Shown here one piece after another: positions 1 to 58,951 of a stretch of 58,951 nt of DNA. A model generated the notes under the pieces. It made no database searches, was not told the origin of the DNA, and saw nothing but the letters and a program-made list of their open reading frames with translations. How positions within the stretch are numbered: position 1 is the stretch's first letter; every line of letters starts with the position of its first letter. Origin of the DNA: a virus (taxonomy: Duplodnaviria > Caudoviricetes); the IMG/VR virus record IMGVR_UViG_3300010413_000033, positions 1-58,951 of that record; one strand, written 5' to 3'. Made by a program: the position numbers and the translations under genes.

Positions 1-956
1 TGACTGAACCACTACGTAGTTCCGATGACATCGATGGAACATGCTTTGAAGTGCCATGCTTTCTGGTAGGCGCTACGGCACAGGATGACAGTGGGGAGTT
101 TCTACCTCCTTTGGCCCCAGGTTTCCGTCGTGTCGTAGCGCCTCAATTTTTCTACAAGGTTCTAGGCGAATATCCAAGCCAGGATATAAACGTATTGATA
201 AGTGAAGACTGGATAAACGCAGCGCGTAGTAGATGGGACATGCTGTCAGCGCAGAACGGATTCAACGTCCCTCCAGAAGGAATCAGGCCACTACTAGGAA
301 TGGACGTAGCAGATGATGGAGGTGACTACAATACAGTAGTGATGCGCTACGGCGGCTACGTACAGGTGCCGTTGAAATGGCGCGGCCTTGACATAGAGCT
401 TTCAGCGATAAAGGCGGCACAGATAGTGGCACAGTGCGACGGCTTAGTCCTCAACGTGGAATCAGACGGCTTAGGCGCAAGCGTAGCTCCTACGGCTTCA
501 AGGCAGTGGTACTGGAAATGTAGTGACTGTGGAAAGACTTTCATAGAGCACGAAACAGAGGTATGTAGTGAGTGTGTAGAAGAAGGAAAACAGGGGAAAT
601 CGCTGCAAAGAAAACATGTGAATGCGAAAAAGATCAGGGTAGGCTCAAAGCCCGATTCAAAGAAAGTGATAGTGGACAACGACAGCGGAATAGAGAAGGC
701 TGAATTCGGAACACTACGCGACCTCCTCTGGTGGTCACTACGTGAATGGCTCAGGACCGATTTCTCATCCGCACTCCCTCCAAGCGAATCACTACTAGAC
801 GATCTCAGAGTCATGACATTCGAAGTCATCCAGGGCAAATTGAAAGTCCTCTCAAAGGACTGGGTGAAAAAAGAGCTGGGAAGATCGACAGACGAAGCAG
901 ACGCACTACTACAAACCTTCTACAGGATATCGGCCCCAAGAGTGAGACTGATATGA
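1..956 (+). CDS. terL: Terminase large subunit, C-terminal RNase H-like nuclease domain (5'-truncated)
   Basis: Frame is open from the window start (TEPLRSSDDIDGTCFEV...). Motifs YKVLGEYP, LLGMDVADDGGD, NVESDGLGASV and KKELGRSTDEADALLQTF are typical of TerL nuclease domains. Lies upstream of the portal. Confidence 0.9.
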   Translation, partial: TEPLRSSDDIDGTCFEVPCFLVGATAQDDSGEFLPPLAPGFRRVVAPQFFYKVLGEYPSQDINVLISEDWINAARSRWDMLSAQNGFNVPPEGIRPLLGMDVADDGGDYNTVVMRYGGYVQVPLKWRGLDIELSAIKAAQIVAQCDGLVLNVESDGLGASVAPTASRQWYWKCSDCGKTFIEHETEVCSECVEEGKQGKSLQRKHVNAKKIRVGSKPDSKKVIVDNDSGIEKAEFGTLRDLLWWSLREWLRTDFSSALPPSESLLDDLRVMTFEVIQGKLKVLSKDWVKKELGRSTDEADALLQTFYRISAPRVRLI

Positions 957-1153
957 CATTCACTACTACTACTACCAGCAACAACTTAACTACACAGGCA
1001 GGATGCTTCAAATGCGGCTACCTCATTTGCAGATGCGGAGAGAAGATGCTCTGTCATGGATGCAATCACTACAAAGAGATAGCAGTCACTACACTTGATG
1101 GAAGGTTCTGCCATGAATGCAGCACTATATTCAAGGACAGGATAGAAACATAA
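953..1153 (+). CDS. Small Cys-rich (Zn-finger-like) hypothetical protein
   Basis: ATG at 953 overlaps the terL stop (ATGA). Contains CxxC, CxC, CxxC and CxxC motifs. Confidence 0.5.
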   Translation: MTFTTTTTSNNLTTQAGCFKCGYLICRCGEKMLCHGCNHYKEIAVTTLDGRFCHECSTIFKDRIET

Positions 1154-1178
1154 ATCACTACACAAGGAGGAAATAGTA

Positions 1179-1418
1179 GTGAGAGTGGAGATCAGGTGCA
1201 AATGCGGCGGAAGCATAGTAGTGGAAGGTGATTCCACAAGCGATGATTCCACAACCGTCATGAAGGAAAGCATGGAGAGATGGGCAAAGCTGCACAAGGC
1301 ATGTACTACTATGAACAGTAGTAGTAATAATAGTAGTAGTGAAGATGAAACACAGCAGCATAAAGGGAAGCCTCACTTCAGAGACCCATACGGTGATGGA
1401 TACATTCCCTACACGTAA
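1179..1418 (+). CDS. Small hypothetical protein
   Basis: AAGGAGG Shine-Dalgarno before the GTG start. CxCGG motif; poly-Ser tract encoded by (AGT)n. Confidence 0.5.
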   Translation: MRVEIRCKCGGSIVVEGDSTSDDSTTVMKESMERWAKLHKACTTMNSSSNNSSSEDETQQHKGKPHFRDPYGDGYIPYT

Positions 1419-1482
1419 GCCACTACGTAGTAGTAGTAGTAGTAGCAGTAATAATAGTAGTAGTGACAGTGAGGAGACAGCG

Positions 1483-1644
1483 GTGAGGAATCCTGAATGC
1501 AAGTGTAATTGCCATGACCCGTATTTCCTGGAAGCAACGGAGACGGAGGAACATGAGGACTGTGGGGAATGCAGGGAAGTGGTCAGGGATGAAAGAGGCT
1601 GGTTTGCAGAATCGGAAGCATGGCTGGACGGTTTTCTGTGGTGA
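1483..1644 (+). CDS. Small Cys-rich hypothetical protein
   Basis: GAGGAG before GTG at 1483. CxCxCH...CxxC motif. Confidence 0.35.
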   Translation: MRNPECKCNCHDPYFLEATETEEHEDCGECREVVRDERGWFAESEAWLDGFLW

Positions 1645-1672
1645 TGTTGCAGAGCGGAAGTCAAAGGAAGGA

Positions 1673-2640
1673 TGAGGTACTACATAGTATGGTAGAGAGA
1701 ATGCGTTTAATGCATTCAAATAGAGGCAGTGGTGAGAAGGGGTGAGGTACTACATAGCCTAATGAAAGAAATGCGTTTAAAAGCTTTCAGTGGAGCAAAA
1801 CGTCTGAGAGGGGGGTGAGGTAGCGGTGAATGGTGTGAATAACAGCAATACAGTGCGATACAGCGAGAAGGGGGGTGCCGCGCACCTCTCGCCCCAGGCC
1901 CTCCAGATCCAGAACAACTACGTAGTGATTCCATTCACTACACTATGTAGTGCCTTTTTCACTACACTACACATAGTAGTGACTACGGATTAGTAGTGAT
2001 ATGGATGCCGAGCACAGGAAAAGGATTCGCTTTGTGTGGTCATGTAGTGATTATTCCCATCACAGCCACAGGTACAAATTCAATGCATGGCTGTGTGGGA
2101 GGATACAGTATGCGATAGTAGTGATTAGGAACTGGCTATGCTCTGTCAAGTCGATAGTGTAGTGATTCATTCCATAAGTGGAGGTGGATTGAAAAAGAAC
2201 GGCACAGATTCCTCCAGAGAGACCTTCCCAGGATTCCTGAGACGGTCCAGGCTGCATTTTCTCTCTGAAAAGGTACAAACGTACTGGAATGGGTTAATCA
2301 CTACGAATAGTAGTGACTACGGATTAGTAGTGATTCATTCATCCAGAGGCCCTGGAGAGGAGAGGGGAACTAATCACTATGTAAATGCATTCACTACTAT
2401 TAGTAGTCGATTGAAATTAGTAGTCGATGCATGGAGAGAATCTGAGGAGGCAGTGAAAAAGAAACCACTACTAAGTGTAGTCACTACTATTCGTAGTGAT
2501 TTATTTTTCCGCCCCATTTTCAATCGACTACTAAGTGTAGTCACTACTAATTCGTAGTAGTAGTGAAGTGCGTAGTGAAAACTTTTTTGAAAAATTTTGT
2601 GCGTAGTGGTACGGGGGGATCGATTTTTTCACTACGTTGG
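1673..2640. repeat. Repeat-rich non-coding control region
   Basis: ~70-bp spaced repeats (TGAGGTACTACATAG at 1673 and 1743; AATGCGTTTAA at 1700 and 1770). Exact 28-bp repeat at 1973 and 2307. Exact 23-bp repeat at 2467 and 2527. A/T tracts near 2577-2600. Confidence 0.75.
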
Positions 2641-2895: not shown

Positions 2896-3240
2896 GTGGC
2901 GATGGCTGAGGTCAGGGTTCCAAGCGAGTACATGGACAACTTTTATTATTCCACTACTACCAACTCTTCAGCTTCAACCCTTTCGTGGGAAGGGACAGCC
3001 AGCATGACATGGGACTCAACCAGTGGCTTCACGCCTTGGCTGGATGAGAACAAAACCGGATGGACTACTACTATCTACACCTCAAATCCCGAACAGGTTC
3101 TGGAAAGGCTGGAAAAGCTGAAAGGCATCTACAACGGAGTAGTAGCGGCTAAGAAGCCTGTGTTCGAAAAGCCCAAAATGGCTGAGACGCGCAGGAAGCA
3201 GCTGAAAGAGGTTTTGAACGACAGGGAGATCGACTTTTGA
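2896..3240 (+). CDS. Hypothetical protein
   Basis: Strong AAGGAGG SD; first gene upstream of the portal. Confidence 0.55.
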   Translation: MAMAEVRVPSEYMDNFYYSTTTNSSASTLSWEGTASMTWDSTSGFTPWLDENKTGWTTTIYTSNPEQVLERLEKLKGIYNGVVAAKKPVFEKPKMAETRRKQLKEVLNDREIDF

Positions 3241-3301
3241 GAACTGGCATGAATCGTGCAAGGCAGGATTGCAGGAAAGACTATCCTCTGAGGTGTGGCC
3301 T

Positions 3302-4765
3302 ATGAAGATATTTGGGTACGAGCTGACCATAAGGAAAGAGAAAGACGACTACGCCAAGGCGCGTAGCCGCTACACTTCAAAGATCCTGTCCGACTTTGAC
3401 TACGATAGGCCGTTGTGGACGGAAGGGAACTACTACTCGCTGCTGCAAGCCTACAGGAGCTGGGTGTTTGTGTGCGCGAACAAAAACGCTACGTCGTTTG
3501 CCTCTGTCCCTCTCAGGCTGTACAGCGGCAAGGAAGTAGTGGGGGATGACGGTAGGCCGAAACCTGTCAAGATAAAATGGCCTACGAGACCTGTGAGCGA
3601 CAGGCAGCGGCTGAACCTGATGGAGAATAGTAGTCTGATGCAGCACAGGATGTTCAGGAAATCCGTGGACGTAGTGGAGATAACAGACCATCCGTTTCTG
3701 GAGATGATGAACAACGTCAATGGGTTCATGAACAGTTTTTCGTTGTGGGAGCTGACAGAGCTGTTTCAGGAGTTATGTGGGAATGCCTACTGGTATGTAG
3801 TGAGGGATGGAGTAGGGACTCCGGTGGAGCTTTGGCCTATCATGCCGCACATGATAAAGGTCATCCCTGACAGGGAGAAATTCATAAAGGGATATCTCTA
3901 CGAGAGCAATATGAACAGGGTGAACATGGAGGAGAAGGAAGTAGTGCACTTCAAGTTCCCTTCACCTACGTCGTTGTACTACGGGAGGGGGCCTTTGGCC
4001 GCGATTACCGATATCTACGCCATAGAGCAGAACATGAACAGGTTTGAGAATGCCATGTTTGCGAACATGGGGAGGCTGGATGGCGCTTTTGAAACGGCGG
4101 AGGAATTGAACGACGTTGAATTCGAACGGCTTAAAAAGGAGATACGCGAGAGCTTCTACGGAGTGCACAACGTTGGGAAATCCCCGTTGTTGGAGAAAGG
4201 GGTTAGCTACAAGAACTACGGTTTTGCGCCTAAAGAGCTGAACCATATACAGGGAAGGGCGAAGATAAAAGAGGCCATAGTGAATGCCTTTGGGCAGTCG
4301 ATGGGGATGTACGACAAGGACGCTACACGCGCAAACGCTGAAGTCGCTACGTTCATGTTCATGCGCGACACTATTAAGCCGAGATGCCTACGCGCCGAGC
4401 AGAAGCTGAATGAGAAATTAATACCGCAGTTCGATCCTGGCCTTTGGGTGGCATTCGATGATTGTGTGCCTGAAAACAGGGAGGTGAGGCTGAAGGAAAT
4501 TGAGGCTCACTTGAAATCTGGATATTCGACTCCTAACGAAGAGAGGCGCAAGGACAACATAGAGGATGCGGAATGGGGCGATAAGCCTATCCTTCCAGGC
4601 GGCTACGCTCCTCTTGGAAGCATTCCTCCGAACCAGACAGGGCAGGGAGCTGGGCAACAGGGCGACGCTACGGAGGAGGAGCTTGCGAAGTTTGTCGATG
4701 AGGTAGTAGGGACTATCTTGGAGAAGCTGGGCAGCCAGGATGTAGTGAAGAGGCTTGCGGCATGA
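3302..4765 (+). CDS. Phage portal protein (HK97 family)
   Basis: Motifs ELCGNAYWYV, PVELWPI, VVHFKFPSP..YYGRGPL, LEKGVSYK and YSTPNEERR. Start placed at ATG 3302 after GAGG. Confidence 0.95.
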   Translation: MKIFGYELTIRKEKDDYAKARSRYTSKILSDFDYDRPLWTEGNYYSLLQAYRSWVFVCANKNATSFASVPLRLYSGKEVVGDDGRPKPVKIKWPTRPVSDRQRLNLMENSSLMQHRMFRKSVDVVEITDHPFLEMMNNVNGFMNSFSLWELTELFQELCGNAYWYVVRDGVGTPVELWPIMPHMIKVIPDREKFIKGYLYESNMNRVNMEEKEVVHFKFPSPTSLYYGRGPLAAITDIYAIEQNMNRFENAMFANMGRLDGAFETAEELNDVEFERLKKEIRESFYGVHNVGKSPLLEKGVSYKNYGFAPKELNHIQGRAKIKEAIVNAFGQSMGMYDKDATRANAEVATFMFMRDTIKPRCLRAEQKLNEKLIPQFDPGLWVAFDDCVPENREVRLKEIEAHLKSGYSTPNEERRKDNIEDAEWGDKPILPGGYAPLGSIPPNQTGQGAGQQGDATEEELAKFVDEVVGTILEKLGSQDVVKRLAA

Positions 4766-6293: not shown

Positions 6294-6864
6294 GTAGTGT
6301 CGTTTTCAAGTTGTCTCCTGCCATAGGCAGTGAGAAATGTGCTGGATGTGGGAAGCAGTCTGATAATGGCAGCTTTCCTCTGCGTTTCAACGGAAAGCCT
6401 ATTTGTTTAGAGTGCATTGAAAAGCGATTCAGCGACAACATCACGGTAGCTACTACTGAACAAGTGATAGTGATGGAGTAGTGTAGTGAGTTATCATCTC
6501 TGCGATGCAAACGGTTTTCTTGATTTAGCTTGCACTACGGAAGGGTTGGGGCAGCTACATGAAGAAGTATTTGCATCAGAGGGATTTCCACTACTGAAAG
6601 ACTTTCTGGAAATGGGCGCTTGTCTAATTACAGATCAGCTATTGGAAGAAATAGACTCTTTTAAGGCACAGGACAAGTATGTCCAGAATACAGTGAAGGG
6701 ACTACGTAGGAATATTAGAAAGGCGGATCTCATAATCATTATCACAAATGGGGAAGAGACAAAGCCGAAACCACTGGTTGAATATTTGAAGGAAATAGAC
6801 TTCTCGAAGTTTGAGGAAGAGGAGCACAGTAGTTACTATGATAGTGTAGTGGAAAAGGCTGGAG
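5682..6864 (+). mobile_element. Putative 1176-bp inserted cassette (nuclease domain, Zn-finger gene, immunity-like domain) bounded by GCTGGAG direct repeats
   Basis: GCTGGAG at 5682-5688 and 6858-6864, both encoding Ala-Gly in the same frame. Removing the insert restores NKGDYVFAGGALEITYEKIDWPPLHPK. Confidence 0.55.
6290..6481 (+). CDS. Small Zn-finger protein
   Basis: GGAGG SD; GTGA overlap with the upstream stop; CAGC...CLEC. Confidence 0.6.
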   Translation: MSSVVFKLSPAIGSEKCAGCGKQSDNGSFPLRFNGKPICLECIEKRFSDNITVATTEQVIVME

Positions 6865-9800
6865 GTGCACTGGAGATCACTTATGAAAAAATAGACTGGC
6901 CTCCATTGCATCCGAAATGCTTCCTTGATGGGCAAGTGCCTGTCTATACCAGCAAAGGATGGAAAGCCATAGGCACTATTGTTCCTGGCACTTTGGTTCT
7001 GACGCACGAAGGAAGATTCAGAAAAGTAAAGGAGTTGTTAGTGACTCCATTACAGACACCGGATGCTACTAAGCTATCACTACATGGCAGGAAAGACAAA
7101 ACGTTGTCCCTGACAGACGAGCATCCTGTCATGATCAATGGTAAGTGGAAAGAGATAAAGGATGTGCGTAGTGGTGACACGATCTCCTTCTTGGCTGGTA
7201 GTTGTGAAAGATGTGGAGCAGATATTCCCTACTTTAAAGACTACTGTAGTTTGTCTTGTCGTAGTAAGGACATAACAGATGGGCAATGGTCAAGACCAGA
7301 GCATAGAAAGAACATGTCTGAAAAGACTACACAGCAACTACATAGGGAGTACGCAAATGGGACGAGAGATCCTTATGTAATAACAAGGAAGGCAAATGCT
7401 AAAACAAGACTGCTAGTGAAGCAGGGACTACTGTCACTACAAAGGCCGGAAGTAATAGCTAAGATGATAGAGGCTACTAACACACCGGAACAGAGAAAAG
7501 CTAATAGTGATAGGATGAAAAGAAATAACCCTATGAAGGATAGGTCTACGGTTGAAAGGAGAACCAAGACCTATTTAAAGACACTACGTAGTAATCCAGA
7601 TATTCATCCAAATAGGATAATGGCTCAAAGGGGGTTTATGAGCAGCCTTGAAAAAAAAGTCAAGGATGTACTAGACACTATGGGCCTCAACTACGAATGC
7701 CAATATCCTATATCAAAATACTTTGTAGACTTTGCCTTGGTGAGTGACAAGATAGCGATAGAGGCGGATGGTGATTATTGGCACCAAGACAAAAAGAGAG
7801 ATAGAAAAAGACAGAAAGACATTGAGAAAAATGGTTGGGTAGTGATTCGATTTTCTGAGAGTGATATAAAGAAAGAAGCTATCCCTATGGGTATGATGTC
7901 AGAAATAAATAGAGTAGTGAACAACCATTCTGGCAACTACAAATTCATGGACGTAAAGGTCGATGTAGTTGAAAGGTGGAAAGTGAGAAAGGCTAGAACA
8001 CTATACAATCTAAATGTTGATGAGGATGAAAGCTACATAGCGGCTGGCTTTGTAGTGCATAATTGCCGTTGTACTGTTTCCCCTGTGCTCATACCGATGG
8101 AGAGATTGCTTGACACTATGCCTGTAGGTAGTATTCCACAGGTTGGGGATGTTCAAGCGCCGCCTACTCCTGCCCCTGTTCCATCACTACGCCCTGCTAC
8201 TCCAAGACCTGCTACGCCTACGCCTGTTCCTGCTACGCCTGTAGCTCCATCAGCATTAACAGAGTCAGAGATCCTAGAAGACCTTCTTGAAGGTTGGCAG
8301 AATGAGGTCAACATAGCGGCGCAGGCAGGGTTAGCAGATGTCCCTATTACTAAAATGTTTGCGGTTCAGCAATTTGAGAATGTAGTGAAGCAGGGACTAC
8401 GCAACGCTGGGATGGATGAATCATTGTATGCGGAAGTAATACGCGATCTGAAAGTAAAGTATCCGTATCTGGAATCAGCATTGGAGAATGCCCCTGATTT
8501 TCAAGGAGCATTAGGTGGAGATATGGCAGAAGCCATAGACACTACAAAAGCCTTTTTATATGGACAGAAGCTAGTAAATTCAACACGATTTTTGCCTAGT
8601 GAAATGCGTAACGTATTCAATTCAGCTGATATTGATTTAGAGCAAGGGATTATTTTATCCAAGGTGCCAGCTAGTGAAGGTGTTGCTTACAGAATCACTC
8701 ATCTTACAAGAGGGCTATCTCTTGTAGAGTATATTGATAGTGAAGAACTTGAGAGACTATGGCGTATATATGAAGATAGAGCTATGACATTTGCTACTGA
8801 AAGATATATGAATAGTGCTATTGACTACATGGGTTTGCCAGGGATGGTAATAGAAAAAGCAGCAGATGATTTATATGAATTGCTTTCAGAAGGATATAAA
8901 GACACATGGAAGGAGAGGTTCTACTACCAAAATGGGTTTTTATCTGATCCTGCTCGTTTGCATTCTGCTAGAAGGTATTTGACAGAAGAGATGGCTTCAG
9001 GGCCTAGATATGCCTTCAAAGAAATAGCTATTTTAAAGTCAGACCCCATAGGGTTAGGGTCTAGGATGATGTCGGATGTGGGAATGGTAGATCTGGTCAT
9101 TGACTTTGATGATCTGCTACGTTCGGCAAATAGTTCCATGAAAGACTACGTGGCTATAGCACTACAAAGATATCTTCCGGCAGCTGCGGTCGCTACCAGT
9201 ACGCAGGGAATGATAACATATGAGCTAACTGACTACGTAGATCAGTATGCTACTACTACGGACAATGTAAGGGCATGGAAAGCCAAAAGATCGGATCTTG
9301 ATCGCATAGTGAGCAATGGTGTTTTGGTAAATGAGGGACCGATAGGTGATCCTGGGATTAATGTCACTTTGAAATTGGATATGGATGTTGCTGGGGTAAA
9401 AGAAAGCTTAGTGTTTAAGCCTGTATCTGGAGAGACATATTTACATCATGGTGAAAAGGTTAGGAAGACGGTAGATGAGACAGTAGCTACACTAGCAAAG
9501 AGAGAAGCAATAAGTAGTGAGATAGGGAATATGATGGAGTTTGATCACATAGACGTAGTGACGGCTGCCTACGGAGTGAAACGTGGTGAGGCAGGAGTAT
9601 ATGTAAAGTTCATGAAAGGCTATGAGGAAGAAATAAAATATGTAGGGAGAAGACTGACAGATGAAGAAGTATTTGATATGAGCGTGTATGACTACTTGAT
9701 AGGAAATCTAGACAGGCATAAAAGAAATTGGATGCGTAGGCTTTCTGATGGACGACCACTGATGATAGATCATGGCTATGTGCTGCCGGACTACGGTCCA

Positions 9801-10106
9801 GTAAATGGGATGATTAGAGAGTTTAGGGCTGGTTACTACGGAAGGATTAATGACGGTCTTGATTGGAGTGTAGACTACACTTATAAGCACAAAGTGATAG
9901 AGAATCTGAAAAAATTGGATATTCCAGATTTAGCAAAACGCTATGGCCTGTCAGAAAGTAGTGGAATGATAAAAGAGCTGAAACGCAGAAGGGATAGATT
10001 AGTAACGTATTTGGAAACAGAAACATTTAACGAAGTCTTTATTGGTAGTGGCTACGATGGGTGGGGCCTGTATGAGGGACACATGGACTACCTATTTCAA
10101 CCATAG
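6486..10106 (+). CDS. Composite protein: immunity-like N-terminus, MuF C-terminal motif, intein, Pro-rich linker, C-terminal PI3K/PI4K/HipA-like kinase (putative toxin)
   Basis: PPLHPK-[intein]-CRC completes the MuF motif. Kinase motifs: LVFKP, REA, DYLIGNLDRHKRNW and IDHG. Confidence 0.85.
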   Translation: MSYHLCDANGFLDLACTTEGLGQLHEEVFASEGFPLLKDFLEMGACLITDQLLEEIDSFKAQDKYVQNTVKGLRRNIRKADLIIIITNGEETKPKPLVEYLKEIDFSKFEEEEHSSYYDSVVEKAGGALEITYEKIDWPPLHPKCFLDGQVPVYTSKGWKAIGTIVPGTLVLTHEGRFRKVKELLVTPLQTPDATKLSLHGRKDKTLSLTDEHPVMINGKWKEIKDVRSGDTISFLAGSCERCGADIPYFKDYCSLSCRSKDITDGQWSRPEHRKNMSEKTTQQLHREYANGTRDPYVITRKANAKTRLLVKQGLLSLQRPEVIAKMIEATNTPEQRKANSDRMKRNNPMKDRSTVERRTKTYLKTLRSNPDIHPNRIMAQRGFMSSLEKKVKDVLDTMGLNYECQYPISKYFVDFALVSDKIAIEADGDYWHQDKKRDRKRQKDIEKNGWVVIRFSESDIKKEAIPMGMMSEINRVVNNHSGNYKFMDVKVDVVERWKVRKARTLYNLNVDEDESYIAAGFVVHNCRCTVSPVLIPMERLLDTMPVGSIPQVGDVQAPPTPAPVPSLRPATPRPATPTPVPATPVAPSALTESEILEDLLEGWQNEVNIAAQAGLADVPITKMFAVQQFENVVKQGLRNAGMDESLYAEVIRDLKVKYPYLESALENAPDFQGALGGDMAEAIDTTKAFLYGQKLVNSTRFLPSEMRNVFNSADIDLEQGIILSKVPASEGVAYRITHLTRGLSLVEYIDSEELERLWRIYEDRAMTFATERYMNSAIDYMGLPGMVIEKAADDLYELLSEGYKDTWKERFYYQNGFLSDPARLHSARRYLTEEMASGPRYAFKEIAILKSDPIGLGSRMMSDVGMVDLVIDFDDLLRSANSSMKDYVAIALQRYLPAAAVATSTQGMITYELTDYVDQYATTTDNVRAWKAKRSDLDRIVSNGVLVNEGPIGDPGINVTLKLDMDVAGVKESLVFKPVSGETYLHHGEKVRKTVDETVATLAKREAISSEIGNMMEFDHIDVVTAAYGVKRGEAGVYVKFMKGYEEEIKYVGRRLTDEEVFDMSVYDYLIGNLDRHKRNWMRRLSDGRPLMIDHGYVLPDYGPVNGMIREFRAGYYGRINDGLDWSVDYTYKHKVIENLKKLDIPDLAKRYGLSESSGMIKELKRRRDRLVTYLETETFNEVFIGSGYDGWGLYEGHMDYLFQP
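6918..8063 (+). mobile_element. Intein (382 aa) with DUF559/Vsr-like endonuclease and NUMOD3-like basic repeats
   Basis: Starts CFLDGQVPVYTSKGWK; block B LTDEHPV; ends LYNLNVDEDESYIAAGFVVHN followed by Cys+1. Internal YFVDFA..KIAIEADGDYWH...GWVVIRFSE. Confidence 0.92.
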
Positions 10107-10114
10107 GATATAAA

Positions 10115-10399
10115 ATGGCTACAAGAAAGAAAGATTACTATCTTAATATTTGGACATTCTCTGAGAATGAAAAGGGTGATTACACGCCTACTATTTTCGG
10201 AACTATCTACTACAGAAATGGTAAAATAGAGTATGATGGTTTATCAAAGGCCATGATAGAAGAATTTGAAGAACTTGGAATTCCATTAGGTGGAAAATTG
10301 TACTATCCAAAAGATGGCTACAGGTTTTTGGAGGCGGCATCTTTGAACATAAAAGGGACGACTATGTCGGCGGATAAGATAAGACAACGAACCTTGTAG
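10115..10399 (+). CDS. Small protein, candidate immunity protein for the kinase domain
   Basis: 94 aa, directly downstream of the MuF-kinase gene, the usual position for an immunity gene. Function inferred from context only. Confidence 0.55.
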   Translation: MATRKKDYYLNIWTFSENEKGDYTPTIFGTIYYRNGKIEYDGLSKAMIEEFEELGIPLGGKLYYPKDGYRFLEAASLNIKGTTMSADKIRQRTL

Positions 10400-10410
10400 G
10401 AGGAACTACT

Positions 10411-13400
10411 ATGAAAGCTAATATTAAACGGCTACGCGATGTAGCAGAAGCCTTTGGTAATGGTCTGATCACAACTACTATAAAGATAGTTTCTCCTGAA
10501 GAGCAGTTTGGAAAGCTATCAAAGCACTTCACCATATCTTTGAAAGAGGCATTTAAGAGATATGGCTATGAAGCATGGGATGATGGAATAGCATTGGTGA
10601 GAAAAGGTATCTCTCCGCGTGATATGGAATTTGAGGAAGGTGAGAGGGCCAGTGTTGACTACATCACTACAAGGGACATAGACCGCGACGGTGAGATAGT
10701 AGTTCCTAAAGGGATAATCCTTGACCACTACAGACAACAGCCAGTAGTGTTGTGGTGCCACGACTATCATCAGCTGCCAGTGGGGAAATCACTATGGGTC
10801 AAGAATGATGAGCTTGGGCTGATATCGAAGACCAAATATGCATCTCATCCAAAGGCCCAAGAGATATTCGACTACAGGCGCGAAGGCTTCCCTATGGCGA
10901 AGTCCATAGGTTTTATCCCATTCGAATACGCTACGCCTGATGAGTACGACAGTCTCAATTTCCAGAAGCTGGGCATTGAGGAGGGTAGTGTAGCAGGGTC
11001 CAAAGTGATCTTCACAAAAGCACTACTCCTTGAATATAGTGATGTTCCAGTTCCATCTAACCCAAAGGCTTTGCAGATTGCCATCTCAAAAGGTCTCGTA
11101 TCTAGAGACAAGATCCTAGACTACTACGGCAAGGACACATTGGATGAGGTGGACAGGCTTGACAATGCGCTACAGACTGAAATCAAGGAATCCTTTAACA
11201 TCACAACGGAGGTGAGCGACAATGGGGAACAAGAAAAAGCAAACCAAGAAGCCGAAGAAGTCAAAGCAACAGCAGCAACCAGTAGTGACAACGGGCAAGA
11301 AGGGCAAGGAGAAGAAAAAGAAATAAAGTTTGATATTGAAGAGGTAGTAGTTGAAAATAACATAGTACAAGAAGCTCCAAAAGAGGGGGATGAATGGGCT
11401 AACTTCTACAAGGTGGATGAGAAAGATCTTGAAGAAGGAGTCCCTACGGAGAAACCTTATCCCAATGAACATGCTTGTAGACTACGTGACCCAAGCAAAT
11501 TTCAGGATGGTAGTTTCCGTAGGACTACGAGAGACCACGAAGGCAAGAAATACTCTATCATTATGGGCAAGCTCAAAGGTGAAAGCACTATGACCGAGCA
11601 AGCCTACAGATACAACAAGGCATCGTGGAGTGCCAGTGAAGCACGTAGTCATTGTAGTGGTCACAAGGGGTCGTTTGAGGCGGCTGCGAATACTGAATCC
11701 ATGTTGGATGAGGCGCTTAATAGTATTAAGGCAGTCGATGGGACATTAGTAGTGACTACTCCTAAACGTCTAACAACGCAGGAGCATGAGGTGCTGCTTA
11801 CCAGCATAGAGAAGACATTTCCGAATACTAACGTGTTGGTAGTGCAGGATGGGATAACAATTAGGAAGATAGGGGCTATTAAACAGGAATGGCAGAGCAT
11901 TAACGTAGTCAAAGACAAAGACAGTCTCACAGCCTACGTAGATGGAAAGGAACGATGGAACAGGCAGCTGTCCAAAACGTTTGATGTGGAACGTATGCGC
12001 CTTGAGCCATACAATTTTATCTATGCTCTTGCTTCAAAGTTCCTTGAGTGCAAGGTGAAAAACATTTCCATAGTTTCTCATAGCATACCATCGGCTATGA
12101 TCGGCAACTACTTACTAGGCATGGAAACTTTCCTTGGTAGTGACAACTACAAAACGCTGGATATAAGGAACATAGATAGCAGAGGTAGTGAGCTTCCTCC
12201 TATCTACGAAGACATTAGATTGAACAGCAAAACGTTTCAGCGTTTCCTTGTAGATGGAATGCGTTTTATAAAGTATGAGAACCAGAAAGAAGAGGGCAAT
12301 TTTGTAGTGAGTGTCTATCCGATATGGGGAGGGCTTGGCCTGTCTTTCTACACCGAGAAAGGGCCTATGTCCGACCATTGTGAATCACTACTTAAAGAGT
12401 TGCACGAATGGGTAGATGAAAACAACACACTACGTGGTGAGAAATTCTCACTGGGTGGCGAATTCCTGCCTATCGATAAATCAATCACATGGGAAGACAT
12501 AGTCCTTGAAGACAGGGCTATAAAAGCACTACATAAAGTAGCAGAGGCAAATCCAGCTACTTCCAGAGGCACACTTCTTGCAGGGCCTCCAGGCACAGGA
12601 AAGACTATGGGTGGTCGTGTAGTGATGAACAATACGGATGCTACCTTTATCTGGCTATCTGCAAGAGACTTTGAATATGTAGGAGCATTTGGTGGACTAC
12701 GTATGTCATTCACTATGGCTAGAAAGCTTGCTCCTACGATTCTGTTTATTGAGGATATTGACAACTGGCTTTCTGACAGGACTTTGGATCTTCTTAAAAC
12801 GGAAATGGACGGCTTGAAGCAGTCAATTGGGATCTATACGGTATTGACCAGCAACTATCCTGAGAGATTGCCCGACGCTATCATAGACAGACCTGGGCGT
12901 TTCCACGATATACTACTCATAGACCTTCCTACTAGTGGACAGCGTGGCAGGATGTTTTCCAAATGGATGGACGATGTTTTTGGTAGTGAAGTAGTGGAGA
13001 AGGAATTTGCAGATCCAGAAGACAGAAAGAAACTACTAGATGTGACTGAAGGATATAGTGGTGCTCACATAAGAGAGTTGATAGTGTTCGCAAAATCACT
13101 ACTGGATGATGGTAGTGCAACTACTGTATCGGATGCTATGAGCATGGCTACGCAGAAGATAGCAGAGCAAAAGGAGTTGATTAACAGGCTGCGCGGAGAT
13201 AGTGAGAAGAAGAAGGGAATTGATACTAGAACATTCCGTGATGAGATAGATATTACAACGTTTGCTGATATGCGAAATGAAAAAGTAGTTGATGAGGTGG
13301 AGGAGAAAGAGGGCCGCGTACTTTCCACTAAGAATCGTAGCGTAGTGAAGAAAGCCATAGATGCTATGGGGGATGCCGTAGTCGCTTTGGATGAGCTTTA

Positions 13401-13656
13401 CAACGCTACGGAACCAGCTCCAAAAGACACTGAAAAGCTTTTGGTAGTGGAGGGAAAAGAATCAACTGATGAGCTTGTTACCATTGTGGCTACACTTCCA
13501 AAACTGAAAGAGAAAAAGAACGTAGTGAGCGATGAGGAACAGGCTAAAGAGATCATTGTTAAGCAATTGAAGGAGCTTCTATCATCGCCTACGCCTTTGG
13601 ATATAACGGCGATGGTTTCAGATAGCTTGCGTAAAAAGCAAGGGAGGCTTTCGTAG
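10411..13656 (+). CDS. HK97-type prohead maturation protease fused to an AAA+ ATPase
   Basis: Protease motifs DRDGEIV, PVVLWCHDYHQLPVGK, SIGFIP and LLEYSDVPVPSNPKAL. AAA+ motifs GPPGTGKT, LFIEDID, TSNYPERLPDAIIDRPGRF and TEGYSGAHIREL. C-terminal EGRVLSTKNR scaffold-like tail. Confidence 0.9.
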   Translation: MKANIKRLRDVAEAFGNGLITTTIKIVSPEEQFGKLSKHFTISLKEAFKRYGYEAWDDGIALVRKGISPRDMEFEEGERASVDYITTRDIDRDGEIVVPKGIILDHYRQQPVVLWCHDYHQLPVGKSLWVKNDELGLISKTKYASHPKAQEIFDYRREGFPMAKSIGFIPFEYATPDEYDSLNFQKLGIEEGSVAGSKVIFTKALLLEYSDVPVPSNPKALQIAISKGLVSRDKILDYYGKDTLDEVDRLDNALQTEIKESFNITTEVSDNGEQEKANQEAEEVKATAATSSDNGQEGQGEEKEIKFDIEEVVVENNIVQEAPKEGDEWANFYKVDEKDLEEGVPTEKPYPNEHACRLRDPSKFQDGSFRRTTRDHEGKKYSIIMGKLKGESTMTEQAYRYNKASWSASEARSHCSGHKGSFEAAANTESMLDEALNSIKAVDGTLVVTTPKRLTTQEHEVLLTSIEKTFPNTNVLVVQDGITIRKIGAIKQEWQSINVVKDKDSLTAYVDGKERWNRQLSKTFDVERMRLEPYNFIYALASKFLECKVKNISIVSHSIPSAMIGNYLLGMETFLGSDNYKTLDIRNIDSRGSELPPIYEDIRLNSKTFQRFLVDGMRFIKYENQKEEGNFVVSVYPIWGGLGLSFYTEKGPMSDHCESLLKELHEWVDENNTLRGEKFSLGGEFLPIDKSITWEDIVLEDRAIKALHKVAEANPATSRGTLLAGPPGTGKTMGGRVVMNNTDATFIWLSARDFEYVGAFGGLRMSFTMARKLAPTILFIEDIDNWLSDRTLDLLKTEMDGLKQSIGIYTVLTSNYPERLPDAIIDRPGRFHDILLIDLPTSGQRGRMFSKWMDDVFGSEVVEKEFADPEDRKKLLDVTEGYSGAHIRELIVFAKSLLDDGSATTVSDAMSMATQKIAEQKELINRLRGDSEKKKGIDTRTFRDEIDITTFADMRNEKVVDEVEEKEGRVLSTKNRSVVKKAIDAMGDAVVALDELYNATEPAPKDTEKLLVVEGKESTDELVTIVATLPKLKEKKNVVSDEEQAKEIIVKQLKELLSSPTPLDITAMVSDSLRKKQGRLS

Positions 13657-13859
13657 TGGGGCACTATGTTTGATGGAGCTGTCAGATATGACTACGCTAT
13701 TACTACGCTATTGGTTGAAGTAGTTGCTGGAGACTGTAGTCAGGCATCGAAAAGGCCATAGTGATGGGTAGTTGTTTTCATGTCGGAGATAGTAGTCAAT
13801 TTTTATTAGTGCATTATCTGGTAAATGGCATATAGTAGATACTCTAGGAGGATTTAGTT

Positions 13860-15134
13860 ATGGAATTAACGGTTGAAAAATTGCAGGAGATAGTGACCTC
13901 TGCTGTTAAGCCTATGCTTGAAGAGCAGAACAAAACCATTTCCGATGTTCAGACTATGGTAGATGACAAGGTGAAGGAGATGGCATCGCAGTTCGGAAGA
14001 AAGCCTGTCATCACTGGCGGAGAGGACATGCTTGTGCAAGATCCTAAAGGTGGCTTCAAATCACTATCTCATTTCGCAAGGGATGTCTACCTTGCTGAAA
14101 AGACAGCTGGTAGGAGAATCTCCAAGGAACTACTGAGCTGGGAGGAAGTAGTCAGAAAGACTACGCCTGTGACAAAGGCAGCTGGAACTGGGATGAGTGA
14201 AGGAGATAGCGAATACGGCGGATTCCTGATTCCAGAGGAATTCAGAAACGACATTCTCATGGCAGTGGAGCAATCCAATGAACTACTGCCAAGATGTATG
14301 AGTGTGCCGATGGGCGCGTCCACTATCAAGATCCCCTACGTCAACGGCTTTGATGAAAGTGGTGGTCTTGTGTGGGGTGGAATTCAGTGGTATTGGACCG
14401 ATGAGGAGGCAGCGTATAGTGAAACAAGGCCGAAGCTTGGGCGTGTAACACTATCACTGAAAAAGCTCACTGGCCTTGCCTACATGTCGGAGGAAATTCT
14501 GGAAGATAGTCCGGTGTCTATGGAGCAACTACTCCGTAGGGGTTTCTCGGATGGTCTCAGTTTCCAGATCAATAAGGTGCTCATCAGAGGGACTGGAGCA
14601 GGGCAGCCTCTCGGATTCCTGAATGCGCCTTGCCTCATAAGCACTACGGCTGAAACGGGACAGACAGCTGCTACTATCGTTTATGAGAACATCCTGAAGA
14701 TGTACGCGCATAGTAGCAATCCTGGCAATTCGATTTGGATTGCAAATCAGGGAGTCCTTCCTCAGCTTGCCACTATGTCTCTCGCAGTCGGGACAGGCGG
14801 CGCTCCTGTGTTTCTCCCTGCCAATGGAGCATCTGGAACACCCTACAACACTCTGATGGGTAGGCCGATTGTGTGGAACAACCATTGTAGTGCTCTTGGA
14901 ACCGTAGGGGATATTCTCTTTGTCGATCTTTCGCAGTATCTCGTAGGCATGAAGGCAGGACAAGGGATGGGCGGAAGGTTTGATATGTCTATCCATCTCA
15001 AATTCGACTACGGGCAAGTTGCTTACCGTTTCATGTTCAGGATTGATGGTCAACCGTGGTGGCCTACGTATCTCACTCCTGCACAGGGAACCAACTATCT
15101 TAGTCCACTTGTGGCTCTTGCTACAAGGTCATAA
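13860..15134 (+). CDS. Major capsid protein (HK97 fold)
   Basis: Coiled-coil delta domain, GGFLIPEEF, VTLSLKKL, GTGAGQPLG, TLMGRPI, FRIDGQPW. AGGAGG SD. Confidence 0.95.
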   Translation: MELTVEKLQEIVTSAVKPMLEEQNKTISDVQTMVDDKVKEMASQFGRKPVITGGEDMLVQDPKGGFKSLSHFARDVYLAEKTAGRRISKELLSWEEVVRKTTPVTKAAGTGMSEGDSEYGGFLIPEEFRNDILMAVEQSNELLPRCMSVPMGASTIKIPYVNGFDESGGLVWGGIQWYWTDEEAAYSETRPKLGRVTLSLKKLTGLAYMSEEILEDSPVSMEQLLRRGFSDGLSFQINKVLIRGTGAGQPLGFLNAPCLISTTAETGQTAATIVYENILKMYAHSSNPGNSIWIANQGVLPQLATMSLAVGTGGAPVFLPANGASGTPYNTLMGRPIVWNNHCSALGTVGDILFVDLSQYLVGMKAGQGMGGRFDMSIHLKFDYGQVAYRFMFRIDGQPWWPTYLTPAQGTNYLSPLVALATRS

Positions 15135-15203
15135 TAAACCTTAGTGTAGTGGTCATGATGTAGTAACTGCACTACTAAATATTTTATCAGGAGGATTTGA
15201 ATT

Positions 15204-15665
15204 ATGGAACAGATGCTTACCCACACCACTAAGATAGTAACTATAGCAGTGCCCAACAACTACACGGGAGCTGCTGGGACTACTGAGTGGATTTCTTTGA
15301 AGGGCTATGACAGGGCGCGGTTTATCATTCAGACTGGCGCGTGGGCTGGTGGTACAGCTGCCGTCACACTGAATCAAGCGACTGACGTAGCTGGGACTGG
15401 GAGTGCGTCGCTGGGCTTTGCTGAGTACTACACTGGCACTGGCGACACTTTGACTCGCACTACGGCCACAAGCGACACTTTCAACCTTGCAGCTGCTAAC
15501 ACCAAATATGTCATTGAGGTGAAAGGTGCTGATCTTACCTCTCCAGATGACTGTGTAAACCTTGCTATCGCCTCCCCAGGCTCGAACGATGACTACTACT
15601 GTGCGATTGCGGAGTTGTATGGTGCAAGGTATGAGGGCAGCTTGCCTACATCAATCACTGACTAG
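15204..15665 (+). CDS. Putative capsid decoration/head protein
   Basis: Beta-rich, Thr/Ala-rich, immediately after the major capsid gene; strong SD. Confidence 0.65.
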   Translation: MEQMLTHTTKIVTIAVPNNYTGAAGTTEWISLKGYDRARFIIQTGAWAGGTAAVTLNQATDVAGTGSASLGFAEYYTGTGDTLTRTTATSDTFNLAAANTKYVIEVKGADLTSPDDCVNLAIASPGSNDDYYCAIAELYGARYEGSLPTSITD

Positions 15666-15771
15666 TGATTGATAGTGTAGTTGTGGAGTCTCTCTCCTCA
15701 CAATAGAATAGCGGATCTGGCCCCTTCCTGCCTGAGCAAAATGGGGCCTTTCCCAAAGGAGATAGTAAGTC

Positions 15772-16032
15772 ATGATAGTAGATGCCGTTCCTGAAAGGAC
15801 GATTAATAAACTTAGCTACTACAGAGTTAAACTACAATCTGAATGGATGGGAAATCCTGAAGGGAGTGAATTGACACTTATGGAACCAATAGCACAAACA
15901 CTACTTAATAGAGGAACCGCTAGACTTGTCAAAGTAGCTGAGAAGGAACCGAAAGGCAAATCGTTGGAGAGTCCACCAAAAGACAAAATGATGAAGAAGA
16001 CTAAAGTGAGAACTAAGTCTGTAACTAATTAA
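15772..16032 (+). CDS. Small basic head-associated hypothetical protein
   Basis: SD AAGGAG; Lys-rich C-terminus (PPKDKMMKK); position typical of post-capsid small genes. Confidence 0.6.
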   Translation: MIVDAVPERTINKLSYYRVKLQSEWMGNPEGSELTLMEPIAQTLLNRGTARLVKVAEKEPKGKSLESPPKDKMMKKTKVRTKSVTN

Positions 16033-16089
16033 CCCTTTCACTACACTATGTAGTGTAGTGCTTCTCTGGAAGTGGAAGGAGATTTTAAG

Positions 16090-16836
16090 ATGGGAAAACT
16101 GAAAGCAAGTTACAATTGGCATGGTAGTGGCAAGTTCGCTATGTGGGACGGGTCTACGTTTGAGACAGTGTTCCATCAAAATCCGATTTTTTTCTACGAC
16201 GATTTCAATGGTCCCGATGTAGTTATCCCTGCCGCTGCATCGCCAGAGTCCGGTTGCAAATGGGCCAAGAAGATTGTGGGTAGTGGCCCTCCTACCGTAG
16301 CACAGGCCGCCGACACAGTCAACGGTTACATGCTTTGCTCCTTGGAAGCTACCAGTGAGAAGCAGGAAGCATTGCTCTACATGAATGATTCTCTGAATTT
16401 CTCCGTCGTTCAAGGGCTTATCTTTGAGGCAAGGGTAGCGATGACTACGCTCGGCACAGGCAACGGCCTCATGCAATTTGGTGTTGGTAGTGTATGGGTG
16501 GATGGTGCTGCTGCATATCGTGCGATCTTTAAGACAACGGCTGGCGGCGGAGTCATGAACTGCAACATCGACGACAACGCTACGGACACAGCCGCAGCCG
16601 CTGGCGTGACCATCCTGAACACAGACTACAAGGTCTACAGAATTGACTGTAGCAACTACTCCAGCATCAAATTCTTCATAGACGGCGTGAGGGTCGCTGC
16701 AAGCACTACGTTTGCATGGGCTGCATCGGCTGCGAATTCCAAGGTCCAGCCATACCTTGGGGTTTACAAATCCACAGGCACAGGCACAGGTGTTATGGCT
16801 GTTGACTACGTTAAGGTGTGGCAAGCCAGAGCATAG
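16090..16836 (+). CDS. Virion protein, concanavalin/beta-sandwich-like
   Basis: FYDDFNG, LIFEARV, YRIDC..IKFFIDGVRV and VDYVKVWQAR are lectin-like jelly-roll patterns. Confidence 0.7.
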   Translation: MGKLKASYNWHGSGKFAMWDGSTFETVFHQNPIFFYDDFNGPDVVIPAAASPESGCKWAKKIVGSGPPTVAQAADTVNGYMLCSLEATSEKQEALLYMNDSLNFSVVQGLIFEARVAMTTLGTGNGLMQFGVGSVWVDGAAAYRAIFKTTAGGGVMNCNIDDNATDTAAAAGVTILNTDYKVYRIDCSNYSSIKFFIDGVRVAASTTFAWAASAANSKVQPYLGVYKSTGTGTGVMAVDYVKVWQARA

Positions 16837-17029
16837 TAACTACTTTGGACAGTGAGGGATATATTCTCACATCCTGGGAGGTGGTAGTTGATAGTGCTAT
16901 GGTGAAACGTAGAAGATCACACATGAACGGTAATCCAGTTAAAACAAAATATAACGCAGTCATGTCTTCTGTCTATGTCCGTTGCATGTTTCAACTACTA
17001 CCTTCTATTTAATTTGGAGGACTACTACT

Positions 17030-17395: not shown

Positions 17396-17418
17396 TTCTC
17401 ATTGGTGGAGGAACTACG

Positions 17419-19156: not shown

Positions 19157-19158
19157 TC

Positions 19159-20383: not shown

Positions 20384-20384
20384 T

Positions 20385-20876: not shown

Positions 20877-20887
20877 GGAGGAGTTGG

Positions 20888-21616: not shown

Positions 21617-21658
21617 TCGGAAAACAATTAATCTTTAACCGCTACGGAGGAAAAACAA

Positions 21659-22111: not shown

Positions 22112-22183
22112 TAGTTACTACAACCACTACATGTCACACAAAGGGGGTTTTCACTTTCATTTTCTATAAGGAGGAGCGTAGTT

Positions 22184-22977: not shown

Positions 22978-22983
22978 AGCACT

Positions 22984-57143: not shown

Positions 57144-57179
57144 GGCAATGCATCCACATTGTGCTGATGTGTGCATTAG

Positions 57180-57497
57180 ACACGGGGTGGCTTGCTTGTT
57201 CTCAACAACTACCTAGTAGTTCTGATGCTGATTAGGACCGCTCGGCCTCTGAGCTACCGCACCATATAGTAGTGAATGTTTTTATTGGAGGTGCGGAGTG
57301 GATTTGAACCACTGACCTGTCCGTTATTTGAACTACTACCAGTTATAGAGAACTACAATAATGCCTGACACTGTGGGGCATAACACTAAAGCTTACGAAC
57401 TACTGCACTACTTCAACTGTATTTTTGAGATACATCCATAGCGGCTTACGTAGTTAATGTAGTGAATCTTAATATGACCTTTAACTTACCCCATCGT
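57180..57497 (-). ncRNA. Structured RNA with a circularly permuted tRNA-like domain (YrlA/Y-RNA-like topology)
   Basis: Minus strand: GGAC-AGGTC-[AGTGG TTCAAAT CCACT]-CCGCACC-T-CCA-(22 nt)-GGTGCGG-TA-[GCTC AGAGGCC GAGC]-G-GTCC. Enclosed by a long stem (57198-57353) and an outer helix (57180-57188 with 57488-57497). Confidence 0.85.
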
Positions 57498-57502
57498 TAG
57501 GA

Positions 57503-58264
57503 CTACACCTTTCCGTAGTTTATGTAGTCCATTATTTTCTTGCCTAGTTCTACCTTTATAGTTGATTCTTCATTGGCCCTCATTCTGGCCTTCTTGAATT
57601 CCTGAGTGAGCTTATCGATTCTTTTAAGCAGCTCCGACTTAGCAGCTGGGGAAATCATTCCAGACCATCTGGTAGTGATGTAGTTGCCTACCGGAACATC
57701 CTGACTGACCTTCTCTATCTGTGCAGGGTGTTTGTCCGTAGCGTCGTAGAGTACAACTGCTTTGATAGTCTTTTCAGTCTTCCACTTTGTTTCAGGCTCC
57801 TTTGCCTTGTATACTCCTTTGCCTTGTGATTCATCTATCTCCCATTCTATTCCTGGCTGTAGTGTAGGGATAGCCTCATACATCTTTCTCCACTGAGCAA
57901 GCCTTGTCTCCATTGCGAGTAGTAGTGTCGCTGGCAGGGTGCAAGTGAATTCCTTGCCGTCAATGTGTACCGTTGAGGATGCTACAGTATTTGTCATTTC
58001 TTTTTCCGTTGTGCAGTCGATGTGCTTTACAAGATGCTCTGCTACGTAGTCAAGCTTTGCCTCTACTGTAGTAGTAAGGGCTTTCACCTCCTCCTGCCCT
58101 GCTTCCTCCTGCTTTCTGGCATCATCAAACATGTGTAGTTGTTTGATAGAAGCCATAAAGTGATCTGCTCTTTTTGAGAAAGTAGTGATTGCCTCATCCA
58201 CTATTTTCTTTGCTGTGTTCTCCAGATCCCTGTCTACTGCTAATACTTCATGTAAGGCCGACAT
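57503..58264 (-). CDS. Conserved helical hypothetical protein, directly upstream of the tRNA-like RNA
   Basis: GGAGG SD; LHEVLAV, LPATLLLAME, AIPTL.P, DKHPAQI, DVPVG and WSGMISPAAKSELLKRIDKL...KKAR.RAN. I recall this as a widespread phage/bacterial family of unknown function (unverified). Confidence 0.85.
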   Translation of the reverse strand: MSALHEVLAVDRDLENTAKKIVDEAITTFSKRADHFMASIKQLHMFDDARKQEEAGQEEVKALTTTVEAKLDYVAEHLVKHIDCTTEKEMTNTVASSTVHIDGKEFTCTLPATLLLAMETRLAQWRKMYEAIPTLQPGIEWEIDESQGKGVYKAKEPETKWKTEKTIKAVVLYDATDKHPAQIEKVSQDVPVGNYITTRWSGMISPAAKSELLKRIDKLTQEFKKARMRANEESTIKVELGKKIMDYINYGKV

Positions 58265-58266
58265 TG

Positions 58267-58797
58267 TTAATACCCTCCTTTTCCAAAGTTCAATCTTAGA
58301 CTTAAATCATTATCAACTACATATTCATCTCTGGCTTTTGCCGCTAGTAGCGGTGTCTTGAAATAACCAATGTGCTTTCTCCTTCTATTGATATAAACAT
58401 ATGCTGACCACGGGTTTGTAAGATTTTTCAATGTAGTAGCGTATGTTACTCCTACGTAGCCACTACTATTGTTCCGCTGCCTATTTCTATTATTAGAGTT
58501 TTGTTTTGGTGTGACAAATCTACAATTCTCAGGTGCATAATTTTTATTGTTGTCCTTTCTGTCAATTTGTAGTCCTTCCTCCCATCCGTTATTCAGCGCC
58601 CAGTTATAGAAGTGTAGAAAATTGTCTCTCCATTGCTTGCATACGGTGATGCCTCTCTCTCCATATGTGTAGTATCTATTGTCTCCTTTATAGTAGCAAC
58701 GTCTTTTCATCCTTTGCCACGTAGTGTAGAGAGGATGTTTCATGGTAAGTCCATGTTTGAATTGACCATTATTAGGACCGTATGCCTTTCCACTCAT
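58267..58797 (-). CDS. HNH endonuclease with C-terminal AP2 DNA-binding domain
   Basis: YGERGITVCKQW, QIDRKDNNKNYAPENCRFVT, NNSSGYVGV and KHIGYFKTPLLAAKARD. Confidence 0.9.
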   Translation of the reverse strand: MSGKAYGPNNGQFKHGLTMKHPLYTTWQRMKRRCYYKGDNRYYTYGERGITVCKQWRDNFLHFYNWALNNGWEEGLQIDRKDNNKNYAPENCRFVTPKQNSNNRNRQRNNSSGYVGVTYATTLKNLTNPWSAYVYINRRRKHIGYFKTPLLAAKARDEYVVDNDLSLRLNFGKGGY

Positions 58798-58951
58798 AAA
58801 TCTGAATCCTCCTTTGTGTAGTTAATATTAATCTGTAAGAGGCGAGACACTACTATCTTTCCCTCTGCTCACCGTGACCAGTGACCTCCGTTTGATAAAA
58901 GGTTAATAATAGTAGTGACAAACCAGAGCAGTGTCTCACCTCCTTTGGCAA

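Follow-up and report, generated by a model that had tools for sequence, protein, structure and literature searches.

The partial genome of a tailed phage (Duplodnaviria; Caudoviricetes) recorded in IMG/VR as IMGVR_UViG_3300010413_000033 is filled with one short DNA word, ACTAC and its complement GTAGT, and strong selection has very probably acted on the word itself. The window analysed here is the complete virus record of 58,951 bases, which is rated as ~76 per cent complete (~24 per cent of the genome is absent). Its plus strand carries 431 copies of ACTAC and 359 of GTAGT, together 790 or one per 75 bp, where base composition predicts 47 and 76, respectively. Dinucleotide-preserving shuffles (n = 100) gave 126 ± 9 copies over the two strands and at most 148; none of the 100 reached 790, and ACTAC itself is in ~6.4-fold excess. 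A first-pass annotation of the sequence had proposed a genome-wide over-representation on both strands and had counted 18 copies in bases 1–1020. That count is exact (13 ACTAC and 5 GTAGT), and the enrichment proves much stronger than had been estimated. Enrichment extends through the entire window, at a mean density of 13.4 per 1-kb bin (minimum 4, maximum 30) and with no trend along its length.

Form and spacing of the word

The core CTAC occurs 1,347 times on both strands (3.0-fold enrichment) and is preceded by A in 59 per cent of sites and, one position further out, by C in 36–45 per cent. Directly before ACTAC the share of C is 45 per cent, and beyond it T is preferred in non-coding DNA; enrichment is 6.4-fold for ACTAC and 12.6-fold for CACTAC. 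Words one letter removed are graded: ACTAT and GCTAC are each enriched 2.1-fold and CCTAC 1.6-fold, while changes within the inner CTA leave at most 1.25-fold and yield neighbours that are all 5–15 times rarer than ACTAC. This gradation resembles a binding matrix. On the 3′ side C is disfavoured, with ACTACC making up only 24 of the 431 copies and ACTACT, ACTACG and ACTACA the other 407. The best form is (T)CACTAC / GTAGTG(A), with a non-coding consensus of TCACTAC(T/A), and information is limited to CTAC and two to three flanking positions (5–7 bases), the outer flanks being at background. The word is asymmetric and not self-complementary. It had been described at first pass as often palindromic or extended to CACTAC/GTAGTG; the extended form does account for 353 of the 790 copies (162 CACTAC and 191 GTAGTG), but palindromy was overstated, as the palindromic ACTACGTAGT is present in only 4 copies.

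Spacing, which had been suggested as a place to look for periodicity, is random. The coefficient of variation of the gaps is 0.98 as against 0.99 ± 0.035 for random placement, by which even spacing is rejected; the longest gap is 705 bases, and the sole periodic signal is the 3-base coding period, together with overlapping ACTACTAC runs.

Independence from codon usage, frame and strand

It had been allowed at first pass that the enrichment might vanish once codon and dipeptide usage were controlled, or be confined to one reading frame. Neither is the case. In 200 shuffles of the 54 coding sequences that kept each protein and its codon usage, 132 ± 8 copies of ACTAC and 96 ± 7.6 of GTAGT were obtained, whereas the genes hold 385 (z = 31.6) and 270 (z = 23.0); whole-codon shuffles gave z = 32 and 27 for the two orientations. 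When all 1,024 pentamers are ranked against the codon shuffles ACTAC comes first, and the next eight all overlap it.

By reading frame (0/1/2), ACTAC is found 154/125/129 times and GTAGT 143/138/0 times, the zero falling in the frame where a TAG stop codon would be read. On the sense strand, then, neither orientation predominates once allowed frames are compared (~125–154 as against 138–143), which fits a reader of duplex DNA and not an effect of mRNA or of tRNA and codons. On the minus-strand genes at 57503–58797 the orientation flips with the sense strand, and GTAGT outnumbers ACTAC on the plus strand. TAG is also the commonest stop codon (28 of 58), and 11 of these 28 lie within GTAGTG.

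Around 695 of the 790 copies lie inside genes, in both orientations. Non-coding DNA holds 79 copies in 3,039 bases by a greedy gene call, and 95 in 3,710 bases once four doubtful open reading frames (ORFs) are dropped; at 25.6 per kb this is the densest class of sequence in the window. The word thus recurs in coding and non-coding DNA alike, as had been supposed.

Saturation of permitted sites and cost to proteins

Saturation was taken as the share of protein-permitted synonymous sites that are actually spelled with the word, and the control for saturation and for dipeptides came from 70 related loci with a similar G+C content, of which the long ORFs were used.

Thr-Thr: 144 of 173 sites in the window (83 per cent); relatives 31 per cent
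Val-Val: 139 of 175 (79 per cent); relatives 21 per cent
[D/N/H/Y]-Tyr: 121 of 167 (72 per cent); relatives 12 per cent
x-Leu-x (ACTAC, frame 2): 120 of 277 in the window (43 per cent)
x-Ser (GTAGT, frame 1): 131 of 347 in the window (38 per cent)

The word also appears in what the proteins contain. The observed-to-expected ratios of Thr-Thr, Val-Val and [D/N/H/Y]-Tyr are 1.57, 1.65 and 1.30 (1.05, 1.01 and 1.08 in relatives), and compared with the related loci Tyr is used 25 per cent more, Val and Ser 19 per cent more and Thr 9 per cent more, with Ile and Lys 16–20 per cent rarer. An influence on codon and residue choice, as first proposed, is accordingly present, though modest in size.

Two conserved genes have the lowest word densities of all (~6–7 per kb):

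3269–4765: portal gene
13860–15134, plus strand: major capsid gene (PHROG major head protein, E = 2e-47)

The capsid gene, which exemplifies how the word has entered a conserved protein, contains 8 copies (6.3 per kb, under the genome mean), several of which were obtained by amino-acid replacement. In an alignment with 17 homologues, L142 and L224 (both CTA) stand where 16 and 14 of the 17, respectively, have Ile; Y384 (TAC) stands where 14 have Ala; Thr is present in none of them at T262 (ACT); and T101–T102 fall within an insertion found in no homologue. Conserved Ile, Val and Ala have in this way been swapped for CTA-Leu, ACT-Thr and TAC-Tyr, and the 17 word codons match the homologues with an identity of 0.46, as against 0.59 for the other 401. 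Given that ~80 per cent of Thr-Thr and Val-Val sites are used and that conserved capsid residues have been changed, each copy would seem to matter to the phage.

Privacy of the word to one lineage

A search with the capsid protein retrieved 26 viral, 58 metagenome and 2 genome-contig loci at 34–68 per cent identity, some contigs being present in two collections. It was the capsid protein alone that found relatives; the portal, a 1,124-aa tail protein and the 1,081-aa ATPase protein returned no related viral contigs. Word density in the viral and metagenome loci, 84 in all, is 0–3.4 per kb, as against 13.4 in the window, and none of the 84 is enriched. The comparison with related phages proposed at first pass therefore shows the word to be private to one lineage, as far as the searched collections go. 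No other word is in comparable excess in these loci, save for a tandem repeat in locus L005. Both L005 and L196 were considered as enriched, for ACTAC or for other words, and rejected, as tandem repeats caused the apparent excess. L005, an 18.4-kb locus of a 56.6-kb viral contig, carries a long repeat, probably a repetitive protein gene, in which 8–10-mers recur 26–56 times (e.g. GAGTCTCC, 56 times).

Two pattern scans of IMG/VR for hexamer clusters recovered no other saturated contig, in the first among the matches listed and in the second, which was complete, among 64 stretches. One candidate (L108), an unrelated AT-rich viral contig of 4.2 kb, was rejected because its copies are confined to local intergenic palindrome arrays and are not genome-wide. 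These arrays, at 3160–3190 and 3800–3960, repeat the 14-bp palindrome CACTACATGTAGTG, are operator-like and share the half-site. Two metagenome-assembled genomes (MAGs) with distant capsid relatives hold the word below control (1,112 vs 3,104 and 292 vs 1,150). A DNA search against cultured phages found no match to the window, and by tblastn of the capsid the cultured-phage relatives are at most 38 per cent identical and spread over many different hosts. In the literature, supplementary files aside, we found no account of the word, nor of any phage genome that a private pentamer saturates.

The phage itself has been sequenced more than once. Sequence words of 13001–23000 are present in 13 public runs from five studies, with half or more of them in five runs, of which one is possibly the source run; no RNA dataset is listed among the runs holding the phage. 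The recorded habitats are marine sediment, estuary and mangrove. In a comparison of four runs over 10001–30000, contigs of three other studies differed from the window by 0–5 positions per piece and were >99.9 per cent identical (e.g. 5 differences in 5,587 bases).

Palindromic pairs and a 1.25-kb non-coding region

Only one arrangement of the word departs from random. Convergent ACTAC-N5-GTAGT and ACTAC-N6-GTAGT pairs occur 10 times each, where other spacers of 0–15 give 0–6 and ~2.6 are expected, and half of these 20 pairs lie at 1935–2560. These ten belong to a region with the densest word content of the window, in which 17 direct and 32 inverted repeat families are built from the word. The elements concerned are as follows.

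1645–2895, no strand assigned: repeat-rich stretch, apparently non-coding (short doubtful ORFs only), that separates the small ORFs on the terminase side from the portal gene
1936–1952, plus strand: perfect palindrome of 17 bp, CACTACA-N3-TGTAGTG, with a T run after it; terminator-like scan match (RNA fold −10.5 kcal/mol, z = −4.2)
2296–2320, no strand assigned: left arm of an inverted repeat of 25 nt, perfect and composed of word copies (100 per cent complementary, 156 nt between arms)
2477–2501, plus strand: right arm of the 25-nt inverted repeat; contains the hairpin TCACTAC-N5-GTAGTGA and, after it, a T run
16039–16055, plus strand: second copy of the 17-bp palindrome of 1936–1952 (−11.5 kcal/mol, z = −3.9)

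The hairpin of the right arm (2479–2501) is likewise a terminator-like scan match (RNA fold −11.4 kcal/mol, z = −4.1), and the palindrome at 16039–16055 lies directly 3′ of the stop codon of a small ORF (15772–16032). All three palindromes fold as stable hairpins; T runs follow two of them, which may thus serve as terminators, as sites for a protein or as both; the palindrome at 1936–1952 could be a terminator-like hairpin or a putative dimer binding site. The region as a whole could function in control or as an origin, or encode a non-coding RNA. It also contains G runs (e.g. ~2610–2660) and a 46-nt direct repeat (1665–1710 and 1735–1780). A 114-aa ORF beside the palindrome cluster had no usable match in the Atlas, and its single-sequence fold has a mean pLDDT of 60.

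A possible reader of the word

Selection on the word is indicated by strand symmetry, frame independence, graded neighbours, a peak of density where constraint is least, synonymous saturation and the amino-acid replacements that create copies. The first-pass view of a selected dispersed signal is in this respect well supported by frames, strands, saturation and protein cost, although the Chi-like and uptake-like options offered with it fit worst.

What selection acts through is a more tentative matter. The explanation that we favour is a sequence-specific protein, private to the lineage, that would bind duplex DNA at full dimer sites in the non-coding control region and at half-sites elsewhere. 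(T)CACTAC would then be a recognition word on double-stranded phage DNA, written wherever coding constraints permit, and its reader would probably be encoded by the phage in the missing part of the genome. CACTAC-N5/6-GTAGTG in the control region may supply full sites for a dimer, and through single half-sites the whole chromosome could be marked or loaded by the same protein. Such reading might serve to discriminate phage from host DNA in packaging or replication, or to compact or silence the genome.

Several observations weigh against this explanation. The random spacing gives no hint of cooperative, phased or lattice-like loading; a half-site of 5–6 bases is poorly specific, and a host would hold roughly one per kb by chance; and the N5/N6 pairs reach no more than chance frequency in coding DNA. 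Some palindromes with T runs may simply be terminators. Only 2 of 21 usable strain differences touch a copy of the word, too few to show purifying selection. Nor was a candidate reader of DNA-binding, DNA-methylase, nuclease or partition type found among 50 ORFs of the window compared with Pfam, 40 of which were searched against PHROGs as well. The sole hint is a sub-threshold A2L-type zinc ribbon (21.8 bits, cut-off 22.9) in a 65-aa Cys-rich ORF at 956–1153. Among the same 50 ORFs no cognate repressor gene was recognised, the early region being outside the record, and there was no match to a Penicillinase_R/BlaI winged-helix repressor, though the dyad format of BlaI/CopY-type proteins, ACTAC-N5-GTAGT, is present.

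Likeness to known genome-wide words

The word works like Chi, uptake sequences, HIP1 and stoperators, yet it departs from the defining feature of each, be it orientation, length, palindromy, number or placement. The stoperators of Cluster A mycobacteriophages likewise repeat one protein's site across a phage genome and in a control region; they are 13–14 bases long, number ~20–35 per genome, are mostly intergenic and are oriented with transcription, whereas here a word of 5–7 bases occurs in 790 copies, mostly within genes and in both orientations. HIP1 of cyanobacteria and the uptake sequences of Neisseria and Haemophilus are also genome-wide, lie in genes in several frames and on both strands, and shape codon and peptide usage. 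These, however, are words of 8–12 bases in cellular chromosomes at about one per 0.4–1.2 kb, HIP1 being palindromic and the uptake sequences (DUS/USS) having 9–12 bases. The phage word is shorter, with its information confined to CTAC and the adjoining two to three positions, is not palindromic, is about ten times denser and is private to one phage lineage.

Alternative explanations

It is possible, if unlikely, that a DNA-modifying enzyme (a methyltransferase or hypermodification system with an asymmetric site of 5–6 bases) targets the word, and that the word's density was selected for a genome-wide mark. A short asymmetric site is the usual format of Type IIS, Type III and BREX-type enzymes, and a word with 5–7 informative bases, used on both strands and private to one lineage, as enzyme specificities often are, agrees with that format. 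The window, however, contains no DNA methyltransferase or hypermodification gene; its two methyltransferase-like ORFs belong to Methyltransf_23/11/12, families of small-molecule or protein type and not DNA methylases. We also know of no report that targets of a known modification accumulate in this way, which counts further against it. In addition, the genome is purged of many short words. CCSGG (CCCGG/CCGGG) is absent where 69 are expected, CCTCG/CGAGG and CCCGC/GCGGG are present once each (84 and 69 expected), CTTAAG and GTTAAC are absent (34 expected for each), and TCGA, CCGG, GTAC and CTAG stand at 0.2–0.46 of expectation. The pattern resembles the evasion of several restriction systems. 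The purging also argues against a mark that broadly shields the phage DNA.

A clearly less probable alternative is that the word mimics a self-marker of the host, such as the Chi of RecBCD/AddAB, and protects phage DNA, on injection or during replication, against degradation and against its capture as spacers or guides. Chi is only 5–7 bases long in some Firmicutes, and a headful phage with random ends would, we infer, need both orientations everywhere. The passages of Zheng et al. on Chi-rich phages describe accumulation of the host's Chi in phages without their own recombination module (LLS, P1 and MD8), where a short asymmetric word far above chance, not attributable to codon usage, is likewise read as positively selected (Zheng et al. 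2025, PMC12315714). In those passages, however, Chi is a host's word of 8 bases, clustered near one end, at one site per ~1.9 kb and co-oriented in 20 of 23 or 32 of 32 cases (Zheng et al. 2025, PMC12315714). The present word, at one per 75 bp, is spread evenly across the window and has no such bias, given 431 ACTAC against 359 GTAGT, equality per allowed frame and the lack of an along-window trend. The lack of a second saturated contig in the complete IMG/VR scan, and among the matches listed in the other, also speaks against a host marker, as does the low word content of the two MAGs with distant capsid relatives.

Rather doubtful, too, is a neutral mutational or repair drive, for instance very-short-patch-like repair or a mutation cold spot, that pushes neighbouring words to ACTAC without benefit. 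Synonymous sites are near saturation and the transition neighbour ATTAC is depleted to 0.36 of expectation, as such a drive would have it. A one-step bias, though, can drain just one of the 15 neighbours, and here every inner neighbour is depleted relative to a word enriched 6–12-fold; the deficit of ATTAC mirrors the choice of xAC over TAC; conserved capsid residues were replaced to create the word; and there are no longer stretches of conserved flank of the kind that would signal templated copying.

Finally, a by-product of codon, dipeptide or amino-acid usage is refuted, for although the window makes frequent use of the codons ACT, GTA, AGT, TAC and CTA, the excess persists in shuffles preserving both protein and codon usage or codon usage only, is found in all allowed frames, is strongest in non-coding DNA and is missing from relatives of similar G+C content; an assembly or base-calling artefact is excluded by the near-identical contigs of other studies and by long ORFs that run uninterrupted despite the TAG inside GTAGT.

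Other features of the record

The genes in the window make up the structural module of a tailed phage, nearly all on the plus strand; early and replication genes lie outside the record. Besides the portal and capsid genes the following were recognised.

3–956: terminase-like 5′ fragment
956–1644, plus strand: three small Cys-rich ORFs directly 3′ of the terminase gene
Between the portal and capsid genes: head-morphogenesis protein
6486–10106, plus strand: intein-bearing head-module protein of 1,206 aa (Intein_splicing and PT-HINT matches, ~residues 150–530)
10411–13656: protein of 1,081 aa with an AAA ATPase domain, downstream of the intein protein
Within the structural module: connector proteins and tail proteins
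20385–21616, plus strand: S-adenosylmethionine (SAM)-methyltransferase-like gene overlapping a glycosyltransferase-like gene (DUF5672/GT2), amid tail genes
22984–28215: tape measure
36491–37156: NlpC/P60 peptidase
39729–40268, plus strand: second small methyltransferase-like gene
57503–58797, minus strand: DUF7873 protein (E = 7.5e-67) and HNH endonuclease, the only clear minus-strand genes

Two of the Cys-rich ORFs contain Ser/Asn tracts encoded by word-built (AGT)n/(GTA)n runs. In the 1,206-aa protein a DUF559/REase-like homing endonuclease is inserted in the intein (residues 389–465), and a PI3/PI4-kinase-like domain lies at the C-terminal end (residues 1038–1105). The placement of this protein and of the AAA ATPase protein between the head-morphogenesis and capsid genes is unusual. 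Within the ATPase gene, contigs of three runs (X2, X3 and X6) join 11477 to 11558, with 80 bases missing; the side that supports the join spans only 26 letters and there are many loose ends around it, and the join could stem from a repeat, from a strain variant or from reads that belong to another organism. The products of the methyltransferase- and glycosyltransferase-like genes may decorate virion proteins.

With regard to the host, the predicted NlpC/P60 peptidase points to a bacterium. The DUF7873 protein, whose family is phage-borne, offers no clue. The window contains no tRNA genes, and an Rfam scan of it returned zero matches.

Implications for phage genome labelling

Phages are known for purging short words from their genomes, and the genome described here purges some while accumulating one to near saturation. 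Among known systems none uses an orientation-free word of 5–7 bases at such density. It is conceivable, though we hold this with less assurance than the binding-protein explanation above, that the phage's own protein reads a private chromosome-wide label to separate phage from host DNA, so that phage DNA could be selectively packaged, replicated, protected or silenced; this would be an undescribed strategy of self-labelling in which word and reader co-evolve, with fast turnover between lineages. A word that proved to belong to the host would instead offer a way to trace which organism this uncultured sediment phage infects. Were a reader protein to exist, the word would represent a new kind of genome-wide interaction of a phage with its own DNA, and a sequence signature by which contigs of one phage lineage may be linked in metagenomes.

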